Shown: positions 3,847 to 54,781, counted from the stretch's first letter. The stretch is DNA of 64,000 nucleotides from an uncultured Gemmatimonadaceae bacterium (GCA_963790305.1 CAWBOC010000008.1:86149-150148), one strand, 5' to 3'. Notes: generated by a model from the sequence alone, not told the origin. Program-made: numbers and translations.

Positions 3847-3905
3847 CCGGGCGACGGCTGACTCGCAGTCAGCACTTCCGCGAGATCTGGTCGGTGAATC
3901 CCTGA
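3847..3905. promoter_or_regulatory. Three degenerate 15-bp palindromic boxes at 22-bp period
   Basis: CCGGGCGACGGCTGA (3847), TCAGCACTTCCGCGA (3869), TCGGTGAATCCCTGA (3891) between divergent genes. Confidence 0.55.
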
Positions 3906-3994
3906 TGCGGTGTTTTCCCGACAGGGCATCGGGACGCCGCCGACAGACGCGCGAGCCCAGTGGCCGCACCATAAGGGTTTCTCGGGGAGTGTGG

Positions 3995-4669
3995 ATGAGA
4001 TATCGCGATCGCAGGGATGCCGGCAGACGCCTGGCGCTCGTTCTCGGCGCCTTCGAGGAACGTCTGGACGTCACGGTCCTCGGGTTGCCGCGCGGCGGAG
4101 TCCCGGTCGCCTACGAGGTAGCGCGCGCGCTGCACGTGGAGCTCGACATCGTCGCCGTTCGCAAGCTCGGGCTTCCGGGCCAGCCGGAATTCGCGATGGG
4201 CGCGATCGCGCTGGGTGGTATCGTGGTCCTCGACGAGGATCTCATCGCGATGATGGGCGTCCCGCCGGCTGCGCTCGAGCGAGTGATCACGGTAGAGCGG
4301 GCCGAGGTCGCGCGCCGCGAGCGCTTGTACCGCGGATCCCGTCCACCGCTCGACGTGCGGGGCCGCACTCTCATCCTCGTCGATGACGGTCTGGCGACAG
4401 GGGCGAGCGTGCAGGCTGCCGTCACCGCGCTCCGCCGTGGAAAGCCCGCGTCGATCGTGGTGGCCTCCCCCGTCGGCTCGAGGCAAGCCTGTCACGCGAT
4501 CGCGGACTGTACCGACGGATGTCTGTGCCCCGAGATGCCGGAGCCGTTCTACAGCGTCGGGTTGTGGTACGAGGACTTCAGCGACACGAGCGATGCCGGC
4601 GTGAAGGAGCTCCTCGCGCAGGCATGGGCGAATGGGAAAAGGCCCCACGCGCGAGCGGGTCATACCTGA
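3995..4669 (+). CDS. Phosphoribosyltransferase family protein (Rv0571c/Rv2030c N-domain-like)
   Basis: YRDRRDAGRRLA, LGLPRGGVPVA, VRKLG, PRPP motif ILVDDGLATG, FYSVGLWYEDF. Confidence 0.92.
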   Translation: MRYRDRRDAGRRLALVLGAFEERLDVTVLGLPRGGVPVAYEVARALHVELDIVAVRKLGLPGQPEFAMGAIALGGIVVLDEDLIAMMGVPPAALERVITVERAEVARRERLYRGSRPPLDVRGRTLILVDDGLATGASVQAAVTALRRGKPASIVVASPVGSRQACHAIADCTDGCLCPEMPEPFYSVGLWYEDFSDTSDAGVKELLAQAWANGKRPHARAGHT

Positions 4670-4745
4670 CAGACGAGGGCGCGAGTCCATCGCAGGTTGC
4701 CGCGAGGTTCTGAACTACTGCTCGAGCCCTGACCATGGAGGAGGC

Positions 4746-5177
4746 ATGCTCGCGTTCACGGAGCTGCATGAAGTCCAGCGCCGGTTGCAAAGCCGGAAGG
4801 TGCTCTCGGTGTTCGTCGACACCTCCGGCCCGGCGGACGGCCCGTCGTGGCGAGCAAAGCTCGACCGCGCCTTGGCCCGCCTGGACGGGAGCCCACCGCA
4901 GTTGCCGAGTGGAGAGCGCACCGCGCGCGAGCTGTGCGTGGCGCACCTTCGGACGGCCCTCGAAAATCTTCGGGGCACTCCCGGAGAGCCGGGATGGGTG
5001 GCCTACGTGACGACGGACGACGTCGTCGCTGCCTGGCCGCTCTACACTCCTGTCGAGACCGCCGTGTTCTGGCGGACCGGAATCGTGACGGCGCAGCCGC
5101 CGTCGCAGCGACGCTTCGCCCTGCAGCGGTCGACGGTGGCACGCCCGCTCATGCGGAATCACGCCTCGCCAGCCTGA
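4746..5177 (+). CDS. Hypothetical protein, weak resemblance to baeRF (release-factor-like) N-terminal domain
   Basis: Strong [18 protein letters not shown]...WRAKLDRAL...GWVAYVT pattern. Confidence 0.6.
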   Translation: MLAFTELHEVQRRLQSRKVLSVFVDTSGPADGPSWRAKLDRALARLDGSPPQLPSGERTARELCVAHLRTALENLRGTPGEPGWVAYVTTDDVVAAWPLYTPVETAVFWRTGIVTAQPPSQRRFALQRSTVARPLMRNHASPA

Positions 5178-5250
5178 GCACCTCCCATTGCGCTCTCGTT
5201 CGGGACCGAGGCGGTAGCTAGCTTCGGTAGCGGACCGAGGGCGCAACGGC

Positions 5251-9911: not shown

Positions 9912-10576
9912 ATGACGACACTCCGAATTCGCCAAGGCCAGATCCTCCTGACGGCCGGTATTCTCTCTTCACTCCTGTACGCCGCCACCGATGTCCTCGG
10001 GGGAATGCGATACCCAGGGTACAGCTTCACCTCACAAGCGATCAGCGAGCTGATGGCCGTCGGCGCTCCCTCGGAAGGCTTCGTCGATCCCCTGTTCATC
10101 CTCTATGGTCTGCTCGTCCTGGCGTTCGGCGCAGGCGTCGTTAGGGAAGGGGCCGGCCGAAATCGACGGTTGCGAATCGCGGGAGGCCTGCTGATCGGAT
10201 ATGCGGCGCTCGGCTTCACCGGGCCTACGCTCTTCGAGATGCAGCAACGCGGTGCCGGCACGCCGAATGGCGACACCCCGCACATCGTTCTCACGGCGAT
10301 CCTCGTACTCCTCCAGCTCCTCGCCATTGGCTTCGCTGCCTTCGCGCTCGGCAAGCGATTTCGCGTCTATTCGTTCGCGACCCTCCTCATGCTCGTCGCG
10401 TTGGGCGTGATGTCCGCCCCCTACGGCGCCCGACTCGCCGCCGGGCAGCCCACGCCAGGCTTCGGGATCGTCGAACGCATCCTTATTTACTCCTCGCTGC
10501 TGTGGGTGGCGGTGTTTGCGATCGCGCTGCTGCGGCGGCACACACGGCCTCCTATGCAGCAGGCGCGCTCAATTGA
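9912..10576 (+). CDS. DUF998-like membrane protein; 3' end uncertain
   Basis: GYSFTSQAISEL, H in TM, GIVERI. The ORF as given runs to 10892 antisense to the CBS gene, but hydrophobic content ends ~10540. Confidence 0.75.
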
Positions 10577-11144
10577 CGTGGTGAGCCCTGTAGACGTAGC
10601 GCGGACCCTCGAGCATCCGCTGGGCGACCGCGCGCGCAATGTCCAGCGCGCTCACGATGCCGAGCAGACGGCCGCCGTCGATCACGAGGACGCGGTGGGC
10701 GTGCGCGCGCTGCATCGCGTCGGCCGCGGCGCGAGCATCGGCCGACGGCGGGAACGCCACCACGCCGCGGTTCATCGCATCGGCGACGGTGTGCACCGCC
10801 AGGAGATCCCACGCCGCGGTATTGACGTCGCTGAACCGCTCGGCGACGTCGGCGCCGGCGTCCGACCAGAAGTCGACGAAGTAGGCTGCTGACGTCTCCG
10901 CCGCACCGTCGAGCTCGCGGGGCTCCTCGTCTTCGCTGGTACCGGTGACGTCGGGGACGCCGGGTGTGGTCGCGAGGAACTCGATGATGTCCATCGCGGA
11001 CAGCACTCCCACGACCTTGTCCGCCTCGACGACCGGTGCCCCGCTAATCTGCCGCGCGGTGAGAATCTCCAGCGCGTCGCGTAGCGACATCCGCGGATCG
11101 AGCGTCACGACCTCGCGCGTCATGATGTCTTGTAGCCTGAGCAT
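10569..11144 (-). CDS. CBS-domain protein
   Basis: DIMTREVVTL, ISGAPVV, VGVLSAMDI, LLGIVSALDI: tandem CBS pair. Confidence 0.92.
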   Translation of the reverse strand: MLRLQDIMTREVVTLDPRMSLRDALEILTARQISGAPVVEADKVVGVLSAMDIIEFLATTPGVPDVTGTSEDEEPRELDGAAETSAAYFVDFWSDAGADVAERFSDVNTAAWDLLAVHTVADAMNRGVVAFPPSADARAAADAMQRAHAHRVLVIDGGRLLGIVSALDIARAVAQRMLEGPRYVYRAHHVN

Positions 11145-11278
11145 GTGGATCTCCCGCTGTCGGTGAAGGAGCAGCTTCCACATCGCAAGCTAGACCCCGG
11201 GCGTCGTCCGTCTGTCGGCGAAAGGGCGCCGTGTCGTAGGGGAATGTCAGGCTCTACTCCGCGCGCGATGCCCGCATG

Positions 11279-11315
11279 TCAGCAGAACCCCGAGGCGTAC
11301 TCCGGCAATCACTGA
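11279..11315. promoter_or_regulatory. Two degenerate palindromic boxes 22 bp apart
   Basis: TCAGCAGAACCCCGA (11279) and TCCGGCAATCACTGA (11301) in a divergent intergenic region. Confidence 0.5.
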
Positions 11316-11382
11316 TAACACCAGGCGATCAGCGAACGCATCGTGGCAGAGAATGGCGACTGATCCCCCACCGGAGGCTCGT

Positions 11383-15318: not shown

Positions 15319-15374
15319 GGCACGCTCCGAAAAGGACCTGTGTTCACGGTATGGCCGTGGCGACCGCAGATCAG

Positions 15375-15411
15375 TCAGCCAATGTGCCGAGATCCGTAAG
15401 ACAATCCCTGA
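15375..15411. promoter_or_regulatory. Two degenerate palindromic boxes 22 bp apart
   Basis: TCAGCCAATGTGCCG (15375) and TAAGACAATCCCTGA (15397) between divergent USP and kinase genes. Confidence 0.5.
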
Positions 15412-15448
15412 CGATTGACGCGCATCGCTTACCGCACATGTTTCTGGA

Positions 15449-16648
15449 ATGCACACTCCAATTGGTGGCTTTCCCGACGGGCGGGACATCACCGAGCACC
15501 GCGCGGCGATGGAGGCGTTGCGCACCTCGGAGTTTCGCTTCGCGTCGATCGTCGACATTGCCGCCGACGCCATCGTCTCGGTGGACGATGAGCAGGTGAT
15601 CACCCTCTTCAATCAGGGCGCGGAACGGATTTTCGGGTACACCGCGGCGGAGGTCATCGGGAAACCGCTCGACCTGCTGCTTCCGACCGACGTGCACGAG
15701 ATCCATCGCGAGCACATCCGACAGTTCTCGCGAACGGGCGAATCGGCTCGCCGCATGGGTGAGCGGAGCGAAGTGCGCGGGCGCCGAAAGAACGGCGAGA
15801 TCTTTCCCGCCGAAGCCTCGATCTCGAAGTTCGATCTCGGTGACCGGCGCGTGTTCACCGCGGTCTTGCGCGACATCACCGATCGCCGCGCGGCCGAGCA
15901 GGAACGCGCTCGCCTGCTCGACGCCGAGCGTTCAGCGCGGGCGGCCGCGGAGGTGGCGCTGCGTACCCGCGACGAGGTGCTGGCGGTGGTGTCGCACGAC
16001 CTGCGCAACCCGCTCAGCGTGATCGACATGTGCGCGGCATCGTTGTCGGACAAGCTCCCGCCTGACGACGCCGCCGCGCACGGCCTCGTCAGGACGATCG
16101 AGAGCTCGACCGCCTGGATGAACCGTCTCATCGAGGACCTGCTGGATGTGGCGCGCGTGGAGGCGGGCCGGCTCGCGCTCGAGCGGAATCCCCAGGACCT
16201 GGTGCGGGTGATCAGTGAAGCGACGGTGATGCTCGAGCCACTCATCGCCGAAAAGTCGCTCACCCTGCGCGAACATCTGCCCGAGTATCTGCCTCGCGCG
16301 TACGTCGACGCACGCCGCATCGTCCAGGTCCTCGAGAACCTCGTGTCGAATGCGGTGAAGCACACCGCTGCCGGCGGTGAAATTCACATTCGCGCCGCGG
16401 CCGCTGATGGCGAGGTGCACATCACGGTGCGCGATACCGGGGCCGGCATTCCGGCGGAAAATCTCCCGCATCTGTTCGACCGATTCTGGCAAGCGCGCGG
16501 GGCTCGGCGTGGCGGCGCCGGACTGGGCCTCGCGATCGCGAAGGGAATCGTCGAAGCCCATGGTGGCCGCATCTGGGTCGAGAGCGAAGTCGGGCTGGGG
16601 AGCACGTTCGCCTTCTCCCTTCCGATCGAGAGACGCGGAGACGCATAG
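15449..16648 (+). CDS. Cytoplasmic PAS sensor histidine kinase (FixL-like PAS); start may be 15509
   Basis: FNQGAERIFGY, LLPTDVHEIH, GRRKNGEIFP; H-box SHDLRNPL, N-box NLVSNAVKH, DTGAGI, GAGLGL. Confidence 0.92.
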   Translation: MHTPIGGFPDGRDITEHRAAMEALRTSEFRFASIVDIAADAIVSVDDEQVITLFNQGAERIFGYTAAEVIGKPLDLLLPTDVHEIHREHIRQFSRTGESARRMGERSEVRGRRKNGEIFPAEASISKFDLGDRRVFTAVLRDITDRRAAEQERARLLDAERSARAAAEVALRTRDEVLAVVSHDLRNPLSVIDMCAASLSDKLPPDDAAAHGLVRTIESSTAWMNRLIEDLLDVARVEAGRLALERNPQDLVRVISEATVMLEPLIAEKSLTLREHLPEYLPRAYVDARRIVQVLENLVSNAVKHTAAGGEIHIRAAAADGEVHITVRDTGAGIPAENLPHLFDRFWQARGARRGGAGLGLAIAKGIVEAHGGRIWVESEVGLGSTFAFSLPIERRGDA

Positions 16649-16790
16649 GCCACTGGGCGCACGTCCGGCTTTCGCCGACAAGAGCGCGGCGCCTCCCCGA
16701 TATTCGGCCGTCTGCTGACGGGCTAGCCTGAGAGCCGAGAGCGGCGAAGTCCTCGTTTTACGCTGCTCGGTCCCTCGCAGGAGCACCCCA

Positions 16791-17794: not shown

Positions 17795-17802
17795 TCTTCC
17801 AG

Positions 17803-17817
17803 TCAGGGAAACCCTGA
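17803..17817. promoter_or_regulatory. Palindromic box with perfect arms upstream of nosZ
   Basis: TCAGGGAAACCCTGA, ~90 bp before the nosZ ATG. Confidence 0.7.
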
Positions 17818-17906
17818 GCACAATCGAGGGTCAGTCCCGACTGCTACCGGATGCCGAGCCCACGATACTGCCGGCACTCCTTTGTCGACTCTCTCGTGAG
17901 GTATCC

Positions 17907-19954
17907 ATGAACGCCAACGTCAGGACGGTCGTGCTCACCGCGGGGATCGCGGCGCTCGTGGCCGGATTCGCCTTTGCCTGCCGGCCGACCGGTCGCCAGG
18001 TGCTCTCTGCCGGCAATGCCGCAGGAAAGGTGTATGTCCCACCGGGGCAGTACGATGAGTACTACGCCTTTCTCTCCGGTGGGTTTACCGGACAGATCGG
18101 TGTCTACGGGATCCCCTCCGGGCGTTTGCTGAAGGTCATTCCCGTCTTTTCGCAGAACGCGGAGAACGGCTATGGCTACAACGACGAAACCAAGGCCGCT
18201 GCTCGAGACATCGTTCGGCGAGATCCCGTGGGACGACACGCACCATCCGTCTCTGTCACAAACGGGCGGCATGCACGACGGCCGGTGGCTCTTCATCAAT
18301 GCCAACAACACGCCGCGGTTTGCGCGCATCGATCTGTCGAAGTTCGAGACAATCGAAACGCTCGAGGTGCCGAACACCGGCGGGAACCATGGCGTCGCCG
18401 TTCGTCACGGAGAACACGGAGATACGTGATCGGCGCCACGCGGTTCTGGGTCCCGATCCCGCAGGCCGACGTCGCGATCGAGACGATTTCGAGAAGGAGT
18501 TCAAGGGCACCATTTCGTTTGTGAAGGCCAACGAGGCCGGCAAGATGGACATCGCCTTCCAGCTTCTCGTGCCCGGCTTCAACTATGACCTCGGTCACGC
18601 CGGGCAAGGGCCCGTCCCATGGCTGGGTGTTCTTCACGTCGTATAACACCGAGCAGGCCTTCACTCGGCTCGAAGTCAACGCGTCGAAGAATGACAATGA
18701 CTATCATCGCCGCGGTGAACTGGAAGCGGCTCGAGCGGTGCGTGGCGCGAGGGCAAGGCAAAATCGATGGCGCGCCAGACTACGCGCACAACTACGACGA
18801 CGCCACGCATTCGCGCATGCGACGGAAATGAAGAAGACGAGCGTGAAGGTGCATGGAGCCTGAGCGACTGTGAAGGCGAGCATCTACTATCTCCCGACCC
18901 CCAAGTCTCCGCACGGCGTCGACATCGATCCCGACCGGCGAATACATCGTCGGGGGTGGCAAGCTCGCCACGGTCATCCCGGTGCACTCCTTCTCGAAGA
19001 TGCGAAGGCGATCGAGAACAAGGCGTTCGAGGAGAAGATCGAAGGGATTCACGTGCTCAAGTACGACGCGATCGATGGCCGGCGAAGTGCAGAATCCCGG
19101 GCTCGGTCCGCTGCATAACGAGTTCGATGACAAGGGATGCGCCTACACATCGGTCTTCATTTCGCTCCGAGATCGTGAAATGGATGCTGGCACGTGGGAT
19201 AGTCGTCGATCGCGTACCGACCTATTACTCGATCGGGCACCTGATGGTGCTGGGCGGCGACACGAAGAAGCCGTACGGCCGGTACATGCTGGCGCTGAAC
19301 AAGATCACGAAGGATCGCTATCTGCCCACGGGTCCCGAGCTCGCGCAGTCGGCGCAGCTCTATCGACATCTCCGGTGCGAAGATGAAGTTGCTGCTCGAC
19401 TTCCCGACGATCGGCGAGCCGCACTACGCACAGGCGCATTCATGCGACGCTGATCCGGGACAAGCAGGTGCGGTTCTACTCAAGCTCGCCGAGAACAGTC
19501 ACCCGTACGTCGTCAAAGAGCGAGAAAGGAGACCGGTATCTAGCGCAGTCGGGAAGAACGTGCATGTCAGGATGACCGCCATTCGCTCGCACTTCGCGCC
19601 GGACAACATCGAGGGCGTGCAGGTCGGCGACACCGTGCTGTTTCATGTCACGAACCTCGAGCAGGACTGGGATATGCTCCACGGCTTCGCCGTCGATGGG
19701 AGTGGAACGACGCCGAACTGCTGATGCATGCCGGGCGAGACGCGCACGCTGAAGTGGGTGCCGAAGCTACCCCGGTGTCTATCCGTTCTACTGCACGGAC
19801 TTCTGCAGCGCGCTGCACCAGGAGATGTCAGGGATATGTCCGCGTCTCACCGGCAGGCTCACGCGTTCCGCTGGTGGCGAACGTGAGTCCGCGCGCCGCG
19901 ACGCAAGCGGCACGCGCTCGCGAGCTGCCCACGGCACGGCCGGTGGAGCGATAG
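17907..19954 (+). CDS. nosZ: Clade II (Sec/lipoprotein-type) nitrous oxide reductase; many frameshifts, likely sequencing errors
   Basis: AFAC lipobox and no twin-Arg; YYAFLSGG, WDDTHHP, GGNHG, PKSPHG, LGPLH, KITKDRYLPTGP, IGEPHY, IRSHFAPD, DMLHGF and CuA CTDFCSALHQEM, spread over frames. Confidence 0.95.
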
Positions 19955-23909: not shown

Positions 23910-24013
23910 GAGGTCGTCGAGGGTGCTCAGGGTGCTCAGGGTGCTCAGGTCAAAGCGGTTTCCCCCTGAGCACCCTGAGCACCCTGAGCACCCTGAGCAC
24001 CCTCGACGACCTC
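23910..24013. repeat. Hairpin with 9-bp tandem arms (AGGGTGCTC)n / (GAGCACCCT)n between convergent genes
   Basis: GAGGTCGTCG-(AGGGTGCTC)x3 ... (GAGCACCCT)x4-CGACGACCTC. Confidence 0.92.
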
Positions 24014-25137
24014 ACTCCACCACCAGAAACCCGATCGCGCCTTTCTGTCCGTGCCCGAAGCCGTGATTGACGAACGGGAATTCTCCGGGGATGTCGCAGA
24101 CGAGCTCGAACACCATCCCCTCCACCGGCGGGCACGGCAAAGGTCTGCGCACCTCGGATAGGCACCTCCGGCGGAGCACCCAGATACACCCGATCGAATT
24201 GCTCACCGACGACATGGAAGGCGCACTGATGCGTCGGCCCCGCGCTGATCACGTACATCCGCACGCGATCGCCCACCTTCACGCGGATCGGCTCGGCCAC
24301 GTACTGTGACGGTCGACCATTGAACGCCACGTAGTCGGGCATCGTCGACTAGCATCTCTGACGTAGTCGAAAGCCTGAACTCCGCCGGCCGCGGGACTGA
24401 GGTAGTACTCCGACTGCACGAGCACGAATTCCTTCGCCGGCGAGAGAGGCGTCGGCGGATCGACGATGATCGCGCCATACATGCCGCTGCCGATGTGCAT
24501 CAGCACGGGCGCCGAGCCGCAGTGATACTTGAATGCGCCCGCGTATTTCGGCCGAAAGGTGAATGAGACGGATTCTCCGGGAACGACTGACCGAAACGCG
24601 GTCTTGGGATCGAGCTGCGCCGCGTGAAAGTCCATCGAGTGCGGGAGCTTTCCGCGATTCGTCAACGTGAACTCGACGGTGTCGCCAACGCGGCATTGCA
24701 CCGTCGGGCCAGGGATGTCACTCTCGAACGTCCATGCGGCGACAACGACCTCGGGCGTGATATGGATGGGAACCTCCGTCGCACTCCAGGCAAGGCGGTG
24801 CGTGCGGCTCGACGAGGGCGGAGGCAGCACGGGATCCCAGCGACGATATGCGATCGGTTGAACACCCGTGGCCGCGCCCTCGGCGGTGGACGTCGTGTGG
24901 CCGCGAACGTCGTGCGTATCGAGACGGCTGTTCGGGTTTTGCAGCGTGATGGTCGAGGGCTGTTGCGCGCCCGACGTGTCGGACCTCGTGCGATCCTCAC
25001 CCTTATCACTGCACCCCGCGAGCGCCCCTGCGAGCCGGAATCACCAGCCCCAGCTTCGACGCGCGCGCCAGAAACGCCCGGCGATCGGTCGATTCGGAGA
25101 CGACATCGGAGAGCAACGTCAGTGACTCGTTCGGCAT
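24012..25137 (-). CDS. nirK: Copper nitrite reductase NirK (Tat signal; several frameshifts)
   Basis: TDRRAFL twin-Arg; HSMDFH (catalytic Asp), YHCGSAPVLMHIGSGM, AFHVVG (catalytic His), FPFVNH. Confidence 0.82.
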
Positions 25138-25166
25138 GGGGCGCTCCTGAGTGGCGAGTGGCGGTG

Positions 25167-25181
25167 TGAGGGAAACCCCTA
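25167..25181. promoter_or_regulatory. Palindromic box between divergent nirK and 2dMCO genes
   Basis: TGAGGGAAACCCCTA with TG...CA flanks. Confidence 0.6.
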
Positions 25182-25297
25182 CAGCGATGTCACGCATCTG
25201 CCGCGCGGACGGCCCCCGTTACCCGACAGATGTGCGCGGATGCTCTCCATAGGTTGGGGCAGCAGGAAAACGCCACCGACCTCGAGAGAACAGCACC

Positions 25298-26395
25298 ATG
25301 TCGAATACAAAACCGACGATGACTTCCGACGCCGGCCGCACCCGCCGGGATTTTCTTCGCAAGAGCGTGATGACGGCCATCGCGGCGCCAGTGGCCGTGT
25401 CGGCACTGGCAAGCTGCAAAGACAGCGCCGCGCAACGCACCGCCACGGCGAGCGACAGCGACCATAGCGGTGGCGCCACGGCACCGCATCCGTCCACACC
25501 GGCCGCTGCGCCGGTCGATCCACGCGCGCGTGCCGATCAGATGGACGCAATGCACGAGAAGGGGATCAAGGCATTTCCCGCCAAGACCGAAGGCAAGGGG
25601 AATCAGCTTCTCACCCCCCGCGTCGTGAATGGCGTGAAGGTCTTCGACATCACCTGCAAGGTCGTGCAATGGGAAGTCGAGCCCGGAAAGAAGGTCGAGG
25701 CCTGGACATTCAACGGCGTCGTCCCAGGGCCACAGATTCGCGTCACCGAAGGCGACCGGATCCGGATGATCGTGAAGAACGAGCTGCCGGAGTCCACGGC
25801 CGTCCACTTTCACGGCGTGGAGATGCCTAACGCCATGGATGGCGTACCGTTCATCACCCAGCCGCCGATCAAGCCCGGTGAGACGTTCACCTACGAGTTC
25901 GTCGTTCCGAATGCCGGCTCGCACATGTACCACTCGCACCACAACGCCGCCAAACAGGTCGGCATGGGGATGCTCGGCGCCTTCATCGTCGCGCCGAAGC
26001 GGGCGCGCGCCATCGAAAAGGTGGACGTGGACTACGTGATGATTCTGAACGATGGCTTCCACGGATACACGCTCAACGGCAAAGGCTTTCCCGCCACGGA
26101 GCCGGTCGTGGCGAAGCTCGGCCAGAAGGTGCGTCTCCGCTTCATGAACGAGGGGATGATGATTCACCCCATGCACCTTCATGGGATGCACATGACCGTC
26201 ATCGACAAGGACGGCTGGGCGCAGCCTGCGCCGTGGAAGTGCGACACGCTCAACATCGCGCCGGGCGAGCGGTGGGACGTCATCGTCCACTGCAACAATC
26301 CCGGCACCTGGGCCTTCCACTGCCACATCCTCCCGCACGCGGAGTCGGAGCATGGGATGTTCGGGATGGTGACGGCGCTCGTGGTCCAGCCGTGA
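25298..26395 (+). CDS. Tat-exported two-domain multicopper oxidase (type-1 Cu in domain 2)
   Basis: TRRDFLRK and LASC; HFHG, YHSH, HPMHLHG, HCHILPHAESEHGMFGM. Confidence 0.92.
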   Translation: MSNTKPTMTSDAGRTRRDFLRKSVMTAIAAPVAVSALASCKDSAAQRTATASDSDHSGGATAPHPSTPAAAPVDPRARADQMDAMHEKGIKAFPAKTEGKGNQLLTPRVVNGVKVFDITCKVVQWEVEPGKKVEAWTFNGVVPGPQIRVTEGDRIRMIVKNELPESTAVHFHGVEMPNAMDGVPFITQPPIKPGETFTYEFVVPNAGSHMYHSHHNAAKQVGMGMLGAFIVAPKRARAIEKVDVDYVMILNDGFHGYTLNGKGFPATEPVVAKLGQKVRLRFMNEGMMIHPMHLHGMHMTVIDKDGWAQPAPWKCDTLNIAPGERWDVIVHCNNPGTWAFHCHILPHAESEHGMFGMVTALVVQP

Positions 26396-26400
26396 AGGCG

Positions 26401-27477
26401 ATGGGCATTCAGGGGATGACGCTGGTGCTGCCGGTGCGACGGACCACGAATGGGCGGCGCGCGGCGCACCTCCCACGGCCGGTCGTCGCGTTCCTGCGAG
26501 TTCCGCTCGTGCTCAAGCTGGTGGGAGCGAACCTCGTCATCGCGCTGGCGACGGTGGTCGCGGCAATGCTGGCGTACGGGACGACACTCGCCGACAGCCG
26601 GGTCGTAACGCTCCTCATCGGGGCTTTGATCATCGCCCAGGTGGTCAATGCCGCGCTCGTGATCATCGCGCTCCGCCCCCTGCATGCTCTCGAGGATGCG
26701 GCTGAGCGGATCGTGTCGGGCGATACCAGGGCCCGCGTTCCCTACTCGCCCCTCGCCGATCGCGACATCGTGCGAACGGGCCGAGCTTTGAACCAGCTGC
26801 TCGACGAGCTCATGCAGGAGCGCGATCGTATCCGCGGCATGGCCACGAAGGTCATCCGGGCGCAGGATGAGGAGCGCGCACGCATCGCTCGCGAGCTGCA
26901 CGACGCGACCGCCCAGACGATGGCCGCCGTGGTGCTACAGCTCAGCGTCGCCGAGAGCGCGTGTGATGACGAGGAGCTGGCGACGAAGCTGCACGAGACC
27001 CGCGACACGGCCACTGAGGCGCTCGAGGAGATTCGGACGCTGTCGCACACGATTTATCCGCGCGTGCTCGAGGACCTCGGCTTGCGCGCCGCGCTCGATT
27101 GGCTGGCGCGACGGACGCGGGAGACGAGCAGCCTCGAGGTGGGCGTCACGCTGCGCGGCGCTGGCAGCGTTCCCGCCACCATCGCATCGGCGCTCTATCG
27201 GGTCGCGCAGGAAGCGCTGCTCAATGCGGTGCGACACGCGTCGGCGACGACGGTCGAGCTTCGGCTCGATGTGGAGCCGGAATACGTTTCGCTGGAGATC
27301 GAGGACAATGGCAACGGGTTCGTCGTGCGTGATGGAGAGGCCCGGCGACCCGGGATGGGTATATTTTCCATGCGGGAGCGCGTGGCACTGGTCGATGGCG
27401 TGCTGGACATTGATAGCGCGCCCGGGCGAGGCTGCTGCGTGCGCGCGCATATTCCCCTGGACGAACAGAGGCTCTGA
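26401..27477 (+). CDS. Membrane HAMP + HisKA_3 sensor kinase (NarX/UhpB/NreB class); start may be 26416
   Basis: Two TM segments, HAMP, QDEERARIARELHD, QEALLNAVRHA, DNGNGF, GMGIFSMRER. Confidence 0.92.
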   Translation: MGIQGMTLVLPVRRTTNGRRAAHLPRPVVAFLRVPLVLKLVGANLVIALATVVAAMLAYGTTLADSRVVTLLIGALIIAQVVNAALVIIALRPLHALEDAAERIVSGDTRARVPYSPLADRDIVRTGRALNQLLDELMQERDRIRGMATKVIRAQDEERARIARELHDATAQTMAAVVLQLSVAESACDDEELATKLHETRDTATEALEEIRTLSHTIYPRVLEDLGLRAALDWLARRTRETSSLEVGVTLRGAGSVPATIASALYRVAQEALLNAVRHASATTVELRLDVEPEYVSLEIEDNGNGFVVRDGEARRPGMGIFSMRERVALVDGVLDIDSAPGRGCCVRAHIPLDEQRL

Positions 27478-28172
27478 TGACTGGTGACCTGATTCGCGTC
27501 GTGCTCGCCGATGACCACACGATCGTCCGCGCCGGGCTCAAGGCAGTGCTCGGCAGCGCCAAGGACATCTCCGTCATCGGAGAGGCATCGAACGGCGTCG
27601 AGGCGATCGCGCTCGCCGAGCGATTTCATCCCGACGTCATCGTGATGGACCTGTCGATGGGCGAGATGGATGGGATCCAGGCAACCAAGGCGCTGGCGGC
27701 CAAGGGCCCGACCCCGCGCGTGCTCATCCTCACGATGCACGCCGAGGAGGAGTATCTCGTTCCGCTCCTCGAGGCCGGTGCCGCAGGCTATCTGGTGAAG
27801 AGCGCCGCCGATCGCGAGCTCGTGGATGCGGTGCGTGCCGTCGCGCGTGGCGATCTGTACGTGCGTCCCGCCGCCGCCCGCGTCCTCGCCAGGGGAATCA
27901 AGAAAAAGGACGAGCACGCCGATGAGCGCACGCGCTTCGAGAAGCTGACCGACCGCGAGCGTGACGTCCTGCGCCTGATCGCCGAAGGCTACACGGCGCC
28001 GGAAATCGGCGAGAAGCTCAACATCAGCCCGAAGACAGTCGACACCTACAAGCAGCGCATCAACGAGAAGCTGGGCCTGACGCACCGCGCCGACTACGTG
28101 AAGTTCGCGCTCAAGCTCGGCATTCTGCACAGCGACGACGCGCCGACGCGGCCGGCGGGGCCGAGCCACTGA
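27477..28172 (+). CDS. NarL/FixJ-family (LuxR HTH) response regulator
   Basis: LADDH, MDLSM, ILTMH, GYLVK, LTDRERDVL, ISPKTVDTY. Confidence 0.96.
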   Translation: MTGDLIRVVLADDHTIVRAGLKAVLGSAKDISVIGEASNGVEAIALAERFHPDVIVMDLSMGEMDGIQATKALAAKGPTPRVLILTMHAEEEYLVPLLEAGAAGYLVKSAADRELVDAVRAVARGDLYVRPAAARVLARGIKKKDEHADERTRFEKLTDRERDVLRLIAEGYTAPEIGEKLNISPKTVDTYKQRINEKLGLTHRADYVKFALKLGILHSDDAPTRPAGPSH

Positions 28173-28178
28173 GGACGG

Positions 28179-28222
28179 CGAGGTAATCGAGGTCGTCGAG
28201 GCTGTCGACATCGATTACCTCG
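28179..28222. repeat. Small hairpin of the same TCGAGGTnn family as 17692
   Basis: CGAGGTAATCGA...TCGATTACCTCG between convergent genes. Confidence 0.7.
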
Positions 28223-29421
28223 ACGTACTCATCATCTGCGGCAGCCGAAGCGTGAACACGGCGCTCGGTTCCTTTACCCACGCCCTCGACCGTGATCTCC
28301 CCGCCCATGAGCCGCGCCAGCTGCCGCGCCACGGCGAGCTCGAAGCCAAACCCTCGACCGCGCGCATGCACCCCGACCGCGATCGGCGGATCGAACAACG
28401 ACTCGACATCCGAGGCCGCCACCGACGGCCCGGCGTCTCGCACGCGCAACTCGGCGGCGCCGTTAGGTGCGGACGTCAGCTCCGCGGACACTTGCGACCG
28501 CTCGGGGCTCATCGCGATCGCATGAGCCAGGAGGTTGAGCAGAAGCTGTCGCGTGCATGCGCCATCGAGCTCGACGAACAGCGGCCCCTCGGCGAGCACA
28601 TCGAGCGAGACGCCGCGCGCCCCTGACTCGGTCTGAAGATCGAGGGCCGACTTCCGCACGAGGTCGGCGAGATCCACGCGCTCGGCGTGAAGGACGATGC
28701 CCCCTTCCTGGATGCGGGTGAGCGTGACGAGATCTTCCACCAGGCGCGCCGACTGCGCGGCGCTCCCGGCGATGTGCGTCACCCCCGCGATCCACTCCGC
28801 CTGCGACGAGGGGGGCGTGTGCAGCAGCGTCCCCGCCCAGAGCCGCACGCCCGCCAGCGCGTTTCCCAGCGCGTGGCTCGCGGCAGAGGTGAGACGCTCA
28901 CTTCCCGCGCGCAATCGCGCCCGCTCGATGGCGACGGCTGCCTGCGTCGCCAGCACCTCCAGGAGCGCGAGGTCCTCCTCGCTGAACTCGTCGGCGCCGA
29001 TCTTCTCGGTCACATAGAGATTTCCAAACACGCGCCCCTGCGCCATGACCGGAACGCCCATGAATGAGCGCATGCGCGGGTGATTGGGCGGCACGCCCGC
29101 GGACGCGGGATGCTGGCTGAGATCGCGAAGCCGCAGGGGACGCGCATCGGTGATGAGAAGCCCAAGAATCCCCTTTCCCTTCGGAAGAGCGCCGATCCGC
29201 GCATGCAGCTCTTTGGGCATCCCCGACGTCAGGAAGTCGGAGAGCCCCGTTCCTTCGGCATTGATGACGCCGAGCGCCGCATAACGGGCGCCCACGATCT
29301 CGCGGGTAACGTCGACGAGGATCTGAAGCACCTGTCCGAGCGACAGCGCCGAGCCGAGCGCGAGGCCGGCCTCGATGAGCGCGCTTCGGAGGCGTGTGGG
29401 ATCCTGATCGGCGGAGGGCAC
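28215..29421 (-). CDS. DosS/DosT-like GAF domain + degenerate HisKA/HATPase; frameshift near 28265
   Basis: ARYAALGV, GKGILGLLI, HPASAGVPPNHPRMRSFMGVP, FGNLYVTEK; the C-terminal AVFTLRLP is in ORF 28215..28409. Confidence 0.85.
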
Positions 29422-31286: not shown

Positions 31287-31343
31287 GCAATAACATCCCA
31301 CTCGTGGTGCGCGACGACCAGTCGGCGCGCCTACGCTATCATA

Positions 31344-31358
31344 TCAGGGATTCCCTGA
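31344..31358. promoter_or_regulatory. Palindromic box with perfect arms between divergent genes
   Basis: TCAGGGATTCCCTGA. Confidence 0.7.
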
Positions 31359-31444
31359 CAAAAACTGCCGACCGTTCCGGTAGCACGGGCAAGGGCTCCG
31401 AGTACATGATGACAGCAGGCTCCTAACGCGATGAGGAGGACGTA

Positions 31445-34178: not shown

Positions 34179-34302
34179 AGTCATTCTCCGGTGAGGTGCC
34201 AGCCGTCGCGTCTCTCGCGACGTTGACACACGATGCGTCGGGCGGTGCGTTCGATCAGTCGGAGGAGAGCCGAAGATTCGTGAGGAGGCCGGCCCGGTCT
34301 TG

Positions 34303-34317
34303 TGAGGGAAACGCTGA
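34303..34317. promoter_or_regulatory. Palindromic box upstream of yceI-barrel genes
   Basis: TGAGGGAAACGCTGA. Confidence 0.55.
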
Positions 34318-34322
34318 CCGAG

Positions 34323-35215: not shown

Positions 35216-35279
35216 TCGCTACTCGGTATGAGGACGTGCGACTGCGATGAAGCTGATGAGCGCACGTGGCGACCGCGTG

Positions 35280-35337
35280 TCAGCGAGAGCCGGAATTTTC
35301 CAGGGGATTTCCGCGGGAGGCGTCGGGGGATGTCTGA
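35280..35337. promoter_or_regulatory. Three degenerate boxes at 21-22 bp spacing
   Basis: TCAGCGAGAGCCGGA (35280), CAGGGGATTTCCGCG (35301), TCGGGGGATGTCTGA (35323). Confidence 0.45.
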
Positions 35338-35443
35338 CAGCCACCGCGGTGTAAGGAGCCTGTACGGAACGCTTGCGATGCGCGGCCGCCGGTCCGCACG
35401 TTGTTGGACCGACTACGCCATTCGCCTACAACAGGGGGAGTTC

Positions 35444-37392: not shown

Positions 37393-37424
37393 CGGGCAAC
37401 CCTCCCTTCAGCGGAGATCATCGA

Positions 37425-41036: not shown

Positions 41037-41165
41037 GCGGTACATCTACGCCGCCTACGGTCTCACCTGGGTGGTGCTGATCGTGTTCACCGTGGCGACG
41101 GTGCGTCGCGTGCGCCGCGCGCAGCGGGCGGCGCGCGCGGTCGCGCTGAGGGAGACGAGCTATGA
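41023..41165 (+). CDS. ccmD: CcmD-like small membrane protein; end approximate
   Basis: [23 protein letters not shown] then basic RRVRR; located between ccmC and ccmE. Confidence 0.75.
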
Positions 41166-44760: not shown

Positions 44761-44792
44761 AAGGCGAGGGATCCACGGGGGGGGCGCCGGTG

Positions 44793-46239: not shown

Positions 46240-46256
46240 CGACTTGACAACCGAGG

Positions 46257-49608: not shown

Positions 49609-51092
49609 GGTGGCGTCTCGGGGCGACCGTCGTCCTCGCACTCGCGGGGGCCACGGCGGGACTCGCGTTCTCGCGCAGCGATGAGGCTCGCTTTCCGCAC
49701 GCGAAACACAAGGGCCTCTTTCCGACGTGCATTGGCTGCCATGCGGGCGTGCTCGAGGAGCGTGCGGAAGAACGCTATCCGCGCCTCGAGCAATGCGCCG
49801 GCTGTCACGATGGGCGTGAGGTCGCGCGAGTCGAATGGGACGGCTCGCGGCGAGAGCCATCCAATCTTCGGTTCTCTCATGCCGAGCACAATCGGGAGGC
49901 CGACCTCGGCGTCAATGCGGCGCTCAACTGCCGGAGCTGTCACGCGCAGTCGGGTGACACGGCGTTCATGGCGGTGCAGCGGGAGCGCGCCACGTTATGC
50001 ATCGCCTGTCACGAGCATCGCGCCACGGCGCACCTCGTCGATGCGCAGTGCCGCACCTGTCATGTGACGCTGGCGCAGGCGCGTGCCCTTCCCGATTCCA
50101 CCATCGCGGCGTTTCGCAAACCTCCCTCGCACGAGCGACCCGATTTCCTCCAGGCGCACGGCGCGACGGCTGCCGAGTCGCAAGCGCGCTGCTCGGTATG
50201 CCACGCACGCGAGAGCTGCGCGCGGTGCCACGTGAACGCCGCCAACGTCCCCGCGATCGCCGCGCTCGAGAGCGATCCGCGCGTGGGGCGCCTCGTGGCG
50301 ATGCGAGGCGCATCGTATCCCGTTCCGCCAAGCCACACGCATCCCGACTTCGTCTACGCGCACGGGAGCGAGGCGCGAGCGCGCGTCCAGAGCTGCGGAA
50401 CCTGTCACACGCAGCCGAGCTGTCGCGCGTGTCATACCGGGCGCGGGGCGTCGGGCACGATCGCGAAGCTCCCACCGGCAGGGCCGGGCGCGCCGTTAGG
50501 CGTGCAGCTGCCGCGGCCGGGATCCCAACGATCGACCGGCACCGGTTCCCGCCGCGGACCGGGCAATGGGAGGAAATGGCGGTGGCGTCCATCCGGCGGG
50601 ATTCCTGGCGACGCACGGCCCGTCGAGCAGCGAGCGGCCAGCTCACCTGCGAGGGATGCCACGCGCGAAAGTTCTGCAGCGATTGCCATGGCGGCGAAGG
50701 AGAGCGTCGATTCCATCCCGCCGAACTTCGTCGTCAGGCACGCGCCCGAGGGGTACTGGCGCCAGCGCGATTGCGCGAGCTGCCACAACACCGAGGTCTT
50801 TTGCAAGGACTGTCACCAGGCGAACGGCGCCGCCGCGACCGGCCGCCGCGACGTGGCCTTCCACAACGCCCAACCACTCTGGCTTCTTCAGCACGGACAG
50901 GCAGCGCGACAAGGACTCGAGAGCTGTGCCGGCTGCCACGCGCAGCGCGATTGCATGCAGTGCCACTCGACGCTGGGATGGGGGATCAGCCCGCACGGGC
51001 CCGGCTTCGACCCGAGCCGCATGTCGAGCAAGAACAACCAGACCTGCGGGTACTGCCACGTCGGTGGTGCGCCGCCGTCGTCGCGCGAGTGA
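49605..51092 (+). CDS. Periplasmic ~16-heme cytochrome c (c3-like; compensating frameshifts ~50520-50715)
   Basis: Signal peptide; FPHAKH, FSHAEH; 14 CXXCH in the main frame plus CEGCH and CSDCH in the frame of ORF 49997. Confidence 0.87.
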   Translation: MRWRLGATVVLALAGATAGLAFSRSDEARFPHAKHKGLFPTCIGCHAGVLEERAEERYPRLEQCAGCHDGREVARVEWDGSRREPSNLRFSHAEHNREADLGVNAALNCRSCHAQSGDTAFMAVQRERATLCIACHEHRATAHLVDAQCRTCHVTLAQARALPDSTIAAFRKPPSHERPDFLQAHGATAAESQARCSVCHARESCARCHVNAANVPAIAALESDPRVGRLVAMRGASYPVPPSHTHPDFVYAHGSEARARVQSCGTCHTQPSCRACHTGRGASGTIAKLPPAGPGAPLGVQLPRPGSQRSTGTGSRRGPGNGRKWRWRPSGGIPGDARPVEQRAASSPARDATRESSAAIAMAAKESVDSIPPNFVVRHAPEGYWRQRDCASCHNTEVFCKDCHQANGAAATGRRDVAFHNAQPLWLLQHGQAARQGLESCAGCHAQRDCMQCHSTLGWGISPHGPGFDPSRMSSKNNQTCGYCHVGGAPPSSRE

Positions 51093-51095
51093 ACT

Positions 51096-51221
51096 GGCGT
51101 CAGGAGTCAGGAGGCAGGGATCAGGGGGTGTCAGGGTGAAGGTTGCCGGAGAACCGCGTACATTCTCCTGACACCCTCGACCCTGGAACCCCCTGATCCC
51201 TGACTCCTGACTCCTGACCCC
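51096..51221. repeat. Heptamer-armed MITE/REP-like element, copy 2
   Basis: (GTCAGGR)n-GGGGGTGTCAGGG core CCCCCTGATC-(CCTGACT)n-CCTGACCCC then TA. Confidence 0.9.
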
Positions 51222-53393: not shown

Positions 53394-54065
53394 ATGGAAA
53401 TGCGCACAGCAAGGTCACGCCGCGATCGCTTCGTGCCGCGGCACAAGCCCATCATCTACAAGGCGCCGCGGGTGGGCGGAGCGCTCATCAACGAGCAGCT
53501 CCCGCGCTACGACTTTCGCGATGCCTACCAGGTGGTCGTCCTCGCGCCGCCGGACGTCGTCTACCAGGCGGTCATGGACCGCGACTTCCTGCGCGTGCCG
53601 CTGGTCCGCGCGTTCTTCGCCATTCGCGAGCTGCCAGCGCGCGCATGGCATCGCCTTACCGGCGCGCCGCCACTGGCCGCGACGCCACGCGCGACGCTCG
53701 CGGACCTGACGCGCATCGGCGCCTTCACGCTGCTCGCCGAGCGTCCTGGTCGGGAGCTGGTGCTCGGCGCAGTCGGGCGCCCGTGGCGGCCGGACTACGC
53801 GTCCACCCGAATCTCCGCGACTGCCTTCGCCGAGTTCGAGGAGCCCGGCTACGCCAAGATCGCGTGGAGCTGGATCGTCAAACCGCTTGGCGCGGGCCAG
53901 ACGCTGCTCGTCTGCGAATGGCGCACGCAGCTGACGGACGATGATGCGCGCGCCCACTTCGCGCGCTATTGGACCGTGGTCTCGAGAGGTGTGCGACTGC
54001 TGGCGCGGATCGGGCTGTCGCGGATCAAGGTCGACTGCGAGCTCGATGCGATGCGTCTCGAATAG
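53394..54065 (+). CDS. DUF2867-like protein
   Basis: LPRYDFRD, LLAERPGRELVLG...PW, PGYAKI, TDDDARAHFARYW. Confidence 0.8.
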   Translation: MEMRTARSRRDRFVPRHKPIIYKAPRVGGALINEQLPRYDFRDAYQVVVLAPPDVVYQAVMDRDFLRVPLVRAFFAIRELPARAWHRLTGAPPLAATPRATLADLTRIGAFTLLAERPGRELVLGAVGRPWRPDYASTRISATAFAEFEEPGYAKIAWSWIVKPLGAGQTLLVCEWRTQLTDDDARAHFARYWTVVSRGVRLLARIGLSRIKVDCELDAMRLE

Positions 54066-54193
54066 GGGTCAGGAGTCAGGGGTCAGGGATCAGGGGGTGT
54101 CGGGGAATGGGTTTCAGGAGAGAACGGCAATGGCGCTCTCCTACAACCCAACCCCTGACACCCCCTGACCCCTGACTCCTGACTCCTGACCCC
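54065..54193. repeat. Heptamer-armed MITE/REP-like element, copy 4, flanked by TA on both sides
   Basis: TA|GGGGTCAGG...CAGGAGAGAACGGC...CCTGACCCC|TA. Confidence 0.92.
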
Positions 54194-54218
54194 TATTTGT
54201 CCCACCACCGTCCCGGCT

Positions 54219-54674
54219 CTACAACCGGTGCAGCGACTCGATGACCGGCCCCCAGGCCGCGGCTTGCTTCTTCGCGGTCACGTCGACGAAGGTGACGACG
54301 GCGCCGTCCGGACCGTTCGCATCGCCCCGGATCGGCGTGGCGCTGACACTCAGCCAGCGACGTGTCCCATCCGACATGACGACGTCGATCTCCTCGTCCC
54401 GCACGACCTCCCCGAGCAGAAGCGCGCGCGCCATCGGCCACTCCGCCTTCGCCGGATCGCTCACCCGGATCCGCTGAGCGAGCTCGTTCTCGTAGAGGAT
54501 CACGATGCGCCCCTTCCCATTCGCCACGACGACGCCGACCGGGAGCTGCTCCAGCAGTGCGTGGAGAACGGCCAATCCCAGGCGCGAGTCTTTCACCGGA
54601 GCCGACTTCACCGGGGCGGCCGAATAGGCCAGAGGGGACTTCGCCTTCCCGGAGTCGTTGACCGTGGCTTCCAT
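54219..54674 (-). CDS. Small stand-alone PAS-domain protein
   Basis: GGAGG RBS; LLEQLPVGVVVA, WPMARAL.GEVV, DGTRRWLSVSATPI, FVDVT. Confidence 0.82.
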   Translation of the reverse strand: MEATVNDSGKAKSPLAYSAAPVKSAPVKDSRLGLAVLHALLEQLPVGVVVANGKGRIVILYENELAQRIRVSDPAKAEWPMARALLLGEVVRDEEIDVVMSDGTRRWLSVSATPIRGDANGPDGAVVTFVDVTAKKQAAAWGPVIESLHRL

Positions 54675-54744
54675 GGATCCTCCCGCGGCGATGGAACGCG
54701 TTGAGTGACGCATCCAGGATGGAGACCGACAGTCTGCGCCGCGA

Positions 54745-54781
54745 TCGGGGAATGCAGTGGACTGTGTCAGCACTTACCTGA
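54745..54781. promoter_or_regulatory. Palindromic box plus half-site 22 bp away, upstream of the PAS gene
   Basis: TCGGGGAATGCAGTG (54745) and TG-TCAGCACTTACCTGA-CA (54767). Confidence 0.55.

Follow-up and report, generated by a model that had tools for sequence, protein, structure and literature searches.

Introduction

The described systems closest to the one presented here are FixL-FixJ of rhizobia and Caulobacter, DosR/DevR of Mycobacterium tuberculosis together with OsdR of Streptomyces, UvrY/SirA/GacA, NreBC of staphylococci and, for nosZ itself, the Crp/Fnr factors. FixJ is described as working mostly through fixK (PMC4999443). DevR occupies closely packed strong and weak sites, the last of which lies over the -35 element, and is autoregulated (PMC3029386), and sites of the OsdR/DosR type are clustered around the regulator gene and before universal stress protein (USP) genes (PMC5069765). 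In NreBC an O2-responsive NarL-type activator acts at a GC-rich palindrome before nitrate and nitrite respiration genes, and NreB senses by a [4Fe-4S] cluster (PMC8139620). Control of nosZ has been assigned to FnrP/NNR, ANR/DNR, Wolinella NssABC and a Nitrosophilus Crp/Fnr protein, and for clade II nosZ, with few detailed studies, the regulators named in that account are Crp/Fnr proteins (PMC11539149). In our study, a stretch of 64,000 nucleotides from an uncultured Gemmatimonadaceae bacterium (GCA_963790305.1, CAWBOC010000008.1; positions 86149-150148 of contig C8 of genome G000, hereafter the window) was analysed, in which a palindrome recurs before a clade II nosZ operon, the operon of a NarL-type response regulator and a number of stress genes.

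An earlier reading of the window, the original prediction, had proposed TCAGGG-N3-CCCTGA, often phased at 22 bp, as the operator of a regulon controlled by the NarL-family regulator at 27477 and not by an FNR/CRP-type factor. The palindromes are found to be a conserved, phased 17-bp promoter element of Gemmatimonadaceae. They are almost certainly genuine activator operators, and it is probable that they serve the 27477 regulator in activating nosZ, its own operon and stress genes after a haem-PAS kinase (15449) has sensed low oxygen. The promoter logic and regulon content are DosR-like and the sensor is FixLJ-like, but the system fails the defining tests for DosR, FixJ, UvrY and NreB.

Materials and methods

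The genome has 4.31 Mb (4,312,770 positions scored). Genes were called with our own hexamer-based caller, and gene starts are therefore approximate. As a matrix trained on the sites of the original prediction would be circular, the matrix was obtained by palindromic expectation maximisation on 147 intergenic regions neighbouring the regulator orthologues in 12 relatives, this genome being excluded. An unpublished genome (G015) supplies single rows in some tallies and no claim depends on it. In the test on untrained regulator loci, two of 40 loci (G202 and G085) were dropped as the regulator was not called by the gene caller. The larger regulator set comprised 80 loci, seven of them without a scoreable leader, and a few of the 80 may be training records.

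A conserved and phased 17-bp palindrome

The best motifs found de novo in the relatives had widths of 21 and 17, reading GTcGGGGaatCCCCgAC, and widths 17 and 21 outscored even widths. The operator is a 17-bp palindrome, GT(C/A)(A/G)GGG-W3-CCC(T/C)(G/T)AC. All 16 sequences listed in the original prediction were present at the coordinates given, and its two perfect copies, at 17803 and 31344, are the sole ones in the genome. The proposed palindrome is thus real, whereas its extent had to be revised to 17 bp with flanking G/C and with arms that often read TAGGGG or TCGGGG. The bare 12-base consensus shows no genome-wide enrichment (11 matches at one mismatch or fewer; permuted half-sites gave a median of 14), whereas the palindrome was found again de novo in the intergenic DNA of relatives.

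Among the 4,312,770 positions scored with the relatives-only matrix, 31344 ranks first and 25167 second, followed by 15397 (5), 35323 (13), 34303 (23), 3891 (40), 17803 (57), 54767 (166), 11279 (983) and 9775 (4799). The top 57 positions therefore include seven of the ten primary sites proposed; 9775 is unsupported, having neither a phased partner nor a -10, and 3847, listed as a secondary copy, scores under the 95th percentile of flanking DNA. The list was also incomplete: the matrix adds 16664, which holds rank 10 and is conserved in three genomes of the same genus, and, outside the window, C8:41628 (rank 3), and the weaker arrays 11237 and 3907 had been missed as well. A match at 44344 (rank 6) was rejected as coding sequence (VGESPA) of a ccmH-like gene that is intact in the orthologue. 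At 14 bits or more, the intergenic density in the window is 49-fold above that in the rest of the genome. In same-genus alignments the primary sites are 84% identical (201/238) against 69% (1355/1950) for other intergenic bases, and the untrained loci gave 29 intergenic matches in 43.8 kb against three coding matches in 286.5 kb.

The phasing was found to survive in independent genomes. Around 64 dereplicated sites of relatives (partly training), the 95th percentile was exceeded by 23 of the 128 flanking positions at 22 bp and by 25 of those at 23 bp, with 6.4 expected and an echo at 44 bp (16/128); around 28 sites of genomes outside the training, the counts at 22, 23, 44 and 45 bp were 10, 10, 10 and 7 of 56, with 2.8 expected. 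In dereplicated regulator-operon leaders the partners are placed towards the gene (at +22 in 19 and at +23 in 21 of 44 leaders; 3 and 1 in the opposite direction). The proposed spacing of 22 bp is accordingly 22 or 23 bp, as 17803 has its partner at +23 and 25167 at +23 and +45. Peaks at 13-14 bp were treated as artefacts because they overlap the primary site. A TA-N3-T hexamer starts 52-56 or 74-78 bp from the primary centre in 34 of 44 regulator-operon leaders, against one on the other strand and an average of 0.8 in shifted windows. With the hexamer start placed at -12, the last site would be centred near -44 and the primary site near -66 or -88; with start-site positions so predicted from the -10-like hexamer, the arrangement is that of an activator over the -35 region.

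A composite rule (primary site of at least 10 bits, phased partner and NA-N3-T hexamer) gave nine matches in the window and five in the remaining genome, where nine shifted controls gave 0-3 and 3-10, respectively. The nine point from 3891 to a transpeptidase gene, from 15397 and 16664 to two USP genes, from 17803 to nosZ, from 25167 to the oxidase-kinase-regulator operon, from 31344 to a pyridoxamine-oxidase-like gene, from 34303 to yceI, from 35323 to a DUF3108 gene and from 54767 to a PAS gene; the rule gives no support to 9775 or 3847. That the copies are chance matches or a mobile repeat of the REP (repetitive extragenic palindrome) kind without regulatory role could be argued from the unenriched bare consensus and from degenerate copies chosen by eye, two of which (9775 and 3847) fail. 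Against this stand the independent rediscovery, the intergenic bias, the one-sided phasing, the fixed -10 distance and the conservation across genera with unrelated flanks, and the untrained-locus, one-sided phasing and -10 tests have already refuted it.

The regulator and the nosZ leaders

The features on which the argument turns are as follows.

17802..17818, no strand: nosZ primary operator (12.6 bits, rank 57; site kept in G004 and G008)
17825..17841, + strand: promoter-proximal weak site of nosZ (+23; 2.9 bits)
17864..17869, + strand: predicted nosZ -10 hexamer GATACT (+54)
17907..19925 (end approximate), + strand: clade II (Sec-dependent) nosZ in frameshifted pieces (TIGR04246 pieces, Pfam; intact in G008)
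25166..25182, no strand: primary operator of the oxidase-kinase-regulator operon, predicted to be autoregulatory (20.7 bits, rank 2)
25189..25227, + strand: two weak phased sites of the regulator operon (+23 and +45; -1.7 and 2.0 bits)
25250..25255, + strand: predicted -10 hexamer TAGGTT of the regulator operon (+76)
25298..26395, + strand: two-domain multicopper oxidase with a Tat signal, heading the regulator operon (near the regulator in 29/80 loci)
26392..27477, + strand: membrane HAMP-HisKA_3 kinase (two hydrophobic segments, very short loop)
27477..28172, + strand: NarL/LuxR-type response regulator (REC + GerE), predicted binder
15449..16648, + strand: FixL-like haem-type PAS + HisKA histidine kinase, predicted gas sensor
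28111..29421, - strand: DosT/DevS GAF-A-like domain on a degenerate HisKA-type kinase (E 3e-36 to 2vzw)
23950..25137, - strand: frameshifted gene for a NirK-like copper enzyme (ATG 30 bp downstream of the 25167 site)

The regulator scores above the cut-offs of PF00072 and PF00196, has an acidic pocket and phospho-Asp (ADDH and VMDL motifs conserved), and is the only canonical receiver plus GerE protein among the four GerE hits of the genome; its nearest named relatives are in Gemmatimonadaceae genomes. Of 22 untrained loci, 14 have a site of at least 12 bits before the regulator operon, the background rate being 0.97% of 2171 leaders, and in the larger set 59 of 73 scoreable leaders have a site. 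The recognition helix SPKTVDTYKQRI is found in 77 of 79 regulator orthologues, and the helix SPKTVDTYKQR resembles SPKTVNSYRYR of UvrY. Among distant homologues in other families (49-55% identity), a site is located upstream of 4/16, all four with the helix SPKTVDTYRSRI. Binding of the palindrome by the 27477 protein, predicted from these features, is highly probable, and its proposed role as controller draws support from the autoregulatory sites and from the nosZ leaders of independent genomes.

In 16 untrained genomes with the regulator, 12 nosZ leaders (8 of 11 genera) have a site of at least 11 bits, all at -237 to -271 from the model start and in most cases accompanied by a phased partner, whereas among 20 regulator-less genomes (19 out of 54 nosZ-bearing f2 genomes and one of f7) only two reach 11 bits, neither having a -10 or a +22 partner; this contrast is confounded with kinship, because presence of the regulator nearly equals membership of family f1. 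Regulator absence in these comparison genomes was based on 14 candidates scored per genome, with two genomes re-checked.

Four of the 20 regulator-less leaders have Crp boxes of the TGTGAC-N4-GTCACA type, and this bears on the view that an FNR/CRP-family factor controls the genes of the window. The known regulators of clade II nosZ are Crp/Fnr proteins (PMC11539149), and the genome encodes four Crp-family proteins above the Pfam cut-off, with nine perfect intergenic CRP boxes outside the window. Nevertheless, FNR, FixK and CRP boxes (TTGAT-N4-ATCAA, TGTGA-N6-TCACA) are not enriched in the intergenic DNA of the window; for FNR, whose absence from these promoters had been claimed, there are no intergenic matches with at most one mismatch and one with at most two, against 3.5 expected. 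The odd, 17-bp symmetry is also unlike the Crp-type 5-6-5 arrangement, and Crp-type boxes at nosZ occur in genomes without the palindrome. Such control is therefore very improbable here.

Three side observations belong here. Near-perfect TGTGAC-N4-GTCACA is found at nosZ leaders outside the family (L309 in G131, L311 in G170, L321 in G090, L326 in G140 and L302 in G063), in most cases some 155-185 bp upstream of where the scanned leader ends. These boxes may belong to a second, Crp/Fnr-type nosZ regulon in the phylum. In G000, outside the window, the nine perfect intergenic TGTGA-N6-TCACA boxes compare with one in coding sequence, and a CRP-like protein is encoded at C9:186787. Rrf2-type genes, recognised by eye from their N-termini (L290-L297, L303-L326), adjoin nosZ both with and without the two-component regulator and are a possible second control layer, responding to nitric oxide (NO).

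In the family as a whole, sites are located before nosZ or before the cupredoxin/cytochrome gene that precedes it. Among true nirK leaders, 8 of 16 reach 12 bits and four more lie at 11.0-11.6, and NirK-like genes have a site in 7 of 10 leaders (3 of 29 loci were left unscored). Sites also stand before genes for haem-copper oxidase subunit I (in two genomes), for cytochrome b, for USP, CBS, BON and YceI proteins and for P-type ATPases, and before a ccm ABC gene, feoB and a ScdA_N gene. To name these, 61 proteins were scanned (57 of 139 downstream genes not nameable by eye and four from other loci), and some divergent neighbours in the list are probably bystanders. The proposed regulon thus survived testing on independent genomes.

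Sensor kinases and the signal

The best Protein Data Bank matches of the 15449 PAS domain are FixL and DosP, and its His86 aligns with the conserved histidine of FixL, which we take to be the haem-binding residue. This histidine is invariant (78/78 homologues) and the domain contains no cysteine. The PAS kinase is found in 42 of 46 regulator-bearing family genomes against 2 of 10 without the regulator, the two being G001 (fragmented) and G007 (71% complete). Haem sensors also bind NO and CO; because of the targets and the likeness to FixL, oxygen is the likeliest ligand, and an input of oxygen or another haem gas through the PAS kinase appears reasonably likely.

The membrane HisKA_3 kinase is found in 31 of the 46 regulator-bearing genomes and in none of the ten without. 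Its histidine is kept in 93 of 103 homologues and the Gln of (D/E)xxxQ, the HisKA_3 phosphatase motif, in 103 of 103, and a role as phosphatase or modulator is predicted for it. The same regulator may instead take its input from this protein, perhaps together with the copper oxidase, as a true kinase sensing copper, membrane redox or NO. Its gene overlaps the regulator start and adjoins the regulator in 76 of 80 loci, with the oxidase nearby in 29, the histidine is mostly retained, copper proteins (NosZ, NirK, oxidases, cupredoxins) are common among the targets, and G065, G101 and G135 have this kinase where the PAS kinase was not found. On the other side, it was not found in 15 of 46 regulator genomes, of which G092, G179, G222, G080, G112 and G128 keep the nosZ site; its histidine is replaced in 10 of 103 homologues and the phosphatase-type Gln never; and USP, CBS and BON targets are non-copper genes. 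Because genomes without the HisKA_3 kinase still keep the nosZ site, the PAS kinase is ranked the likelier activator input, and an input of the copper, redox or NO type is considered unlikely.

The DosT-like GAF kinase (28111-29421) was rejected as the sensor of the system because it is not conserved (five homologues among all fetched loci), the kinase being degenerate. Its N, G1 and G2 boxes are altered (LLNLLAHA, DAGPSV, GRGFG), in the same way in three same-genus genomes, and it is possibly a haem-gas pseudo-kinase.

Proposed mechanism and its weighing

In the mechanism proposed, the FixL-like haem-PAS kinase would sense low oxygen and phosphorylate the NarL-type regulator, whose dimers would bind the strong site (about -66 or -88) and then fill the weaker sites on the same helix face. 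RNA polymerase would be recruited by the last dimer, whose centre would lie near -44, over the -35 region's upstream edge. The autoregulatory site would provide positive feedback, and the co-transcribed membrane HisKA_3 kinase would act mainly as a phosphatase or modulator.

A number of observations weigh against this mechanism. Gemmatimonas aurantiaca is reported to express nosZ when O2 is present (10.1101/2022.10.27.514152). At an E-value of 1e-24 or below, 4/46 regulator-bearing genomes lack the PAS kinase. NarL-type receivers usually pair with HisKA_3 kinases, and the PAS kinase here is of the HisKA type. At threshold, 8/22 untrained regulator leaders and 4/16 nosZ leaders in regulator-bearing genomes are without a site, G127 and G101 have none near the regulator, and G063 has the regulator, yet a Crp-type box at nosZ. 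Counts of the strict 17-bp pattern show only a modest excess (66 in 37 genomes, where the reversed control gave 46; 51 against 22 in 19 genomes), and over 201 genomes of the phylum the contrast is weak, about half of the genomes having a chance match. Regulator presence follows family f1 (36/40 f1 genomes; one close orthologue among 97 f2), and any family-wide factor would yield the same nosZ contrast, kin not being independent. Lastly, G001 has four intergenic sites and the regulator was not found in it.

These last two points, with the Rrf2-type genes beside nosZ in many genomes, are the basis for supposing that another transcription factor, shared by the family and encoded elsewhere, binds the palindrome, the two-component genes being merely members of the regulon. 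For G001, two of the four sites share gene context with those of G006, and its nosZ contig breaks inside nosZ, beside the position where G006 carries the regulator; we read the missing regulator as an assembly gap. In family genomes without the regulator, 7 of 10 have no strict matches, G122 has one and G016 two (both coding), which speaks against another factor, as do the Rrf2-type genes that also stand beside nosZ leaders without the motif, and the site before 4 of 16 distant regulator homologues, all with SPKTVDTYRSRI. Moreover, UvrY and FixJ, which have the same DNA-binding domain, recognise similar half-sites (PMC4682653, PMC4999443). G090, of another family, has five strict matches, together with a Crp-type box in its nosZ leader; when it was searched again for the regulator, nothing above 39% identity was found. 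Another factor is quite improbable on this evidence, and the 27477 regulator acting after the haem-PAS kinase is retained as the probable explanation.

Comparison with the described systems

As in FixL-FixJ, a haem-type PAS + HisKA kinase occurs with a LuxR-type helix-turn-helix regulator, and the FixJ site TAAGTAATTTCCCTTA has a TAAGGGA-type arm similar to the palindrome (PMC4999443). Unlike them, the proteins here miss the curated cut-offs (172/850 bits for FixL, 80/255 for FixJ), the palindrome has 17 bp against the evenly symmetric 16-18 bp of the FixJ site, nosZ, oxidase and stress genes have the sites directly in front of them, and a second, membrane HisKA_3 kinase is often present. The symmetrised FixJ box had no window match with up to three mismatches.

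With DosR/DevR and OsdR the system shares a NarL-type regulator, the packing of strong and weak sites with the last predicted over -35, the autoregulatory site, the clustering of sites near the regulator gene, and USP genes downstream of sites. DosR targets also include CBS, phosphoribosyltransferase, cation-ATPase, SulP and pyridoxamine-oxidase-like genes. Their box, however, is GGG-N8-CCC with even symmetry (OsdR AGGGCCGATCGGCCCT), and the DosR recognition helix is KTVKNYVSR against KTVDTYKQR here. With up to three mismatches the DosR consensus had no match in the window. The OsdR consensus (PMC5069765) likewise had none. In DosS/DosT the sensor is a GAF-haem HisKA_3 protein, whereas the conserved sensor here is of the PAS type and the DosT-like GAF domain sits on a degenerate HisKA-type kinase; the phylum is different, and the targets include clade II nosZ and nirK. 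From the likeness to DosR drawn in the original prediction, the layout of primary and secondary sites can be kept, but the palindrome is no DosR box and the regulator no DosR.

UvrY/SirA/GacA is among the two best named families for the regulator (166 bits), with a near-identical start of the recognition helix. The UvrY box, TGTAAG-N6-CTTACA (PMC4682653), has the same outer arms, the palindrome differing mainly by one central base. Even so, 166 bits compares with a cut-off of 280, the identity to E. coli UvrY is 35%, and the spacer is one base shorter in the UvrY box, against whose arms the 64 sites average 4.2 mismatches of 12 for N7 and 6.2 for N6. There is no BarA-type hybrid kinase beside the regulator, and the main targets of UvrY are small RNA genes with far-upstream sites.

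With TAGGG-N4-CCCTA as its sequence, the NreC operator would be one base shorter than TAGGG-N5-CCCTA here, and a 4-base-centre variant of the pattern has 13 matches in 41 genomes against 65 for the 3-base centre. Unlike NreB, the sensor here is a His-type PAS without cysteine, matching FixL/DosP. In Crp/Fnr control, too, nosZ transcription is tied to oxygen or nitrogen-oxide status (PMC11539149); one-component factors act there, whereas a two-component NarL-type activator is predicted here.

Other arrays and genes of the window

The remaining arrays are listed below, each with the gene it faces.

3840..3906, - strand: 3891 (primary) and 3869, 13.0 and 2.5 bits, with predicted -10 CACTTT at 3845; L,D-transpeptidase gene (3002-3661)
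3906..3972, + strand: weaker array 3907 and 3929, 7.7 and 1.9 bits, with predicted -10 CACCAT; phosphoribosyltransferase, cation-ATPase and SulP genes (tentative)
11187..11252, - strand: weak array 11237 and partner, 6.4 and 2.6 bits, with predicted -10 TAGCTT; CBS-domain gene, 10569-11183 (tentative)
11278..11344, + strand: pair 11279/11301, 7.6 and 8.9 bits, with predicted -10 CATCGT; gene at 11383 (tentative)
15346..15412, - strand: 15397 and 15375 with predicted -10 TACCGT, 17.7 bits, rank 5; USP gene (14356-15318), and 38 bp before the divergent PAS kinase
16663..16729, + strand: 16664 and partner (+22) with predicted -10 TAGCCT, 15.6 bits, rank 10; second USP gene
31343..31410, + strand: strongest site 31344 with predicted -10 CATGAT, 21.1 bits, rank 1; pyridoxamine-oxidase-like gene, and 58 bp before the divergent P1B-type ATPase (29463-31286)
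34230..34318, - strand: 34303 and partner (+44), 14.1 and 2.8 bits, with predicted -10 CATCGT; yceI (33579-34178)
35250..35338, - strand: 35323, 35301 and partner (+43), 14.6, 0.4 and 4.4 bits, with predicted -10 CAGCTT; DUF3108 gene
54716..54782, - strand: 54767 and 54745, 10.9 and 3.3 bits, with predicted -10 CATCCT; small PAS-domain gene (54219-54674)

Site 31344 is identical (17/17) in G004 and G008, and 15397 is kept at 17/17, 17/17 and 15/17 in three same-genus genomes. The 25167 site had been assigned to both nirK and the two-domain oxidase; its partner sites and -10 point to the oxidase-kinase-regulator operon, whereas on the side of the nirK-like gene neither a partner site nor a -10 was found. 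For this NirK-like gene the intact G008 orthologue scores 174 bits with TIGR02376 against a cut-off of 296, and its copper-ligand and catalytic Asp/His columns match NirK.

From 3 to 38 kb, the genes encode an L,D-transpeptidase, a phosphoribosyltransferase, a cation ATPase, SulP, a CBS protein, two USPs and the PAS kinase; then follow the clade II nos operon, the NirK-like gene and the two-domain copper oxidase with the HisKA_3 kinase and the NarL-type regulator; the remainder holds the GAF kinase, the P1B ATPase, the pyridoxamine-oxidase-like gene, yceI and nrfHA. In the nos operon, nosZ is followed by nosD, ABC ATPase, permease and cupredoxin genes up to 23905, and at 19959-21901 the genes between nosZ and nosD are apparently fused to nosD, forming one frame of about 645 amino acids in G004 and G008. 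Many frameshifts occur at 17907-19925 (nosZ), 23950-25137 (nirK-like) and 39000-51100 (ccm genes and multihaem cytochromes); these are probably assembly indels, because the orthologues are intact in the same-genus genomes G004 and G008. The P1B-type ATPase (29463-31286, - strand) has the transmembrane motif TPCP and not CPC. The matrix scan found no site upstream of nrfHA (36007-37874, - strand) or of the ccm operon in the window; nrfHA, the ammonifying nitrite reductase, shares its island with nosZ and the nirK-like gene and is therefore probably under separate control.

Short tandem repeats stand beside some operators, with GAGGTGATC-type 9-mers at 17697-17745, before the nosZ site, and GAGTGGG 7-mers at about 34330-34355, after the 34303 site; comparable runs are present near sites of G002, G004 and G006. 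Outside the window, C8:41628 (L087), the third-best site of the genome, has a partner and a -10 and precedes a ScdA_N (DUF542) gene; its equivalent in G001, G004, G006 and G008 precedes a NirK-like copper enzyme gene followed by that small ScdA_N gene. At L059-L060 (G011:C138) the regulator orthologue lies directly after a restriction-modification-like gene with no site nearby, both kinases being on C164, possibly through rearrangement or misassembly.

Conclusions

All parts of the system are of known kinds; the operator and the wiring are new. Full-text searches among open-access papers, as distinct from subscription journals and RegPrecise-type databases, found neither this operator nor any two-component regulator of Gemmatimonadota nosZ described. 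On balance we lean towards the reading that the Gemmatimonadaceae have replaced FNR/Crp control with a hypoxia switch of their own, in which a FixL-like haem kinase would act through a NarL-type regulator on nosZ, nirK, high-affinity oxidases and DosR-like dormancy genes. Taken jointly with it, and held with the same slight preference, are a dispensable membrane phosphatase, direct activation through phased 17-bp boxes, and the running of nosZ from a Crp-type box in some sister lineages.

The Gemmatimonadaceae are an abundant soil lineage of nitrous oxide (N2O) reducers, and NosZ is the only biological N2O sink. In four soils, Gemmatimonadetes nosZ mRNA tracked N2O reduction better than nosZ DNA did (R2 0.91 against 0.36; PMC9530729), and the switch of nosZ therefore matters. 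Our study supplies a candidate regulator, operator, promoter geometry and sensor for it. If true, this would mean two-component control of clade II nosZ in these bacteria, and a promoter signature that can be read from metagenomes.

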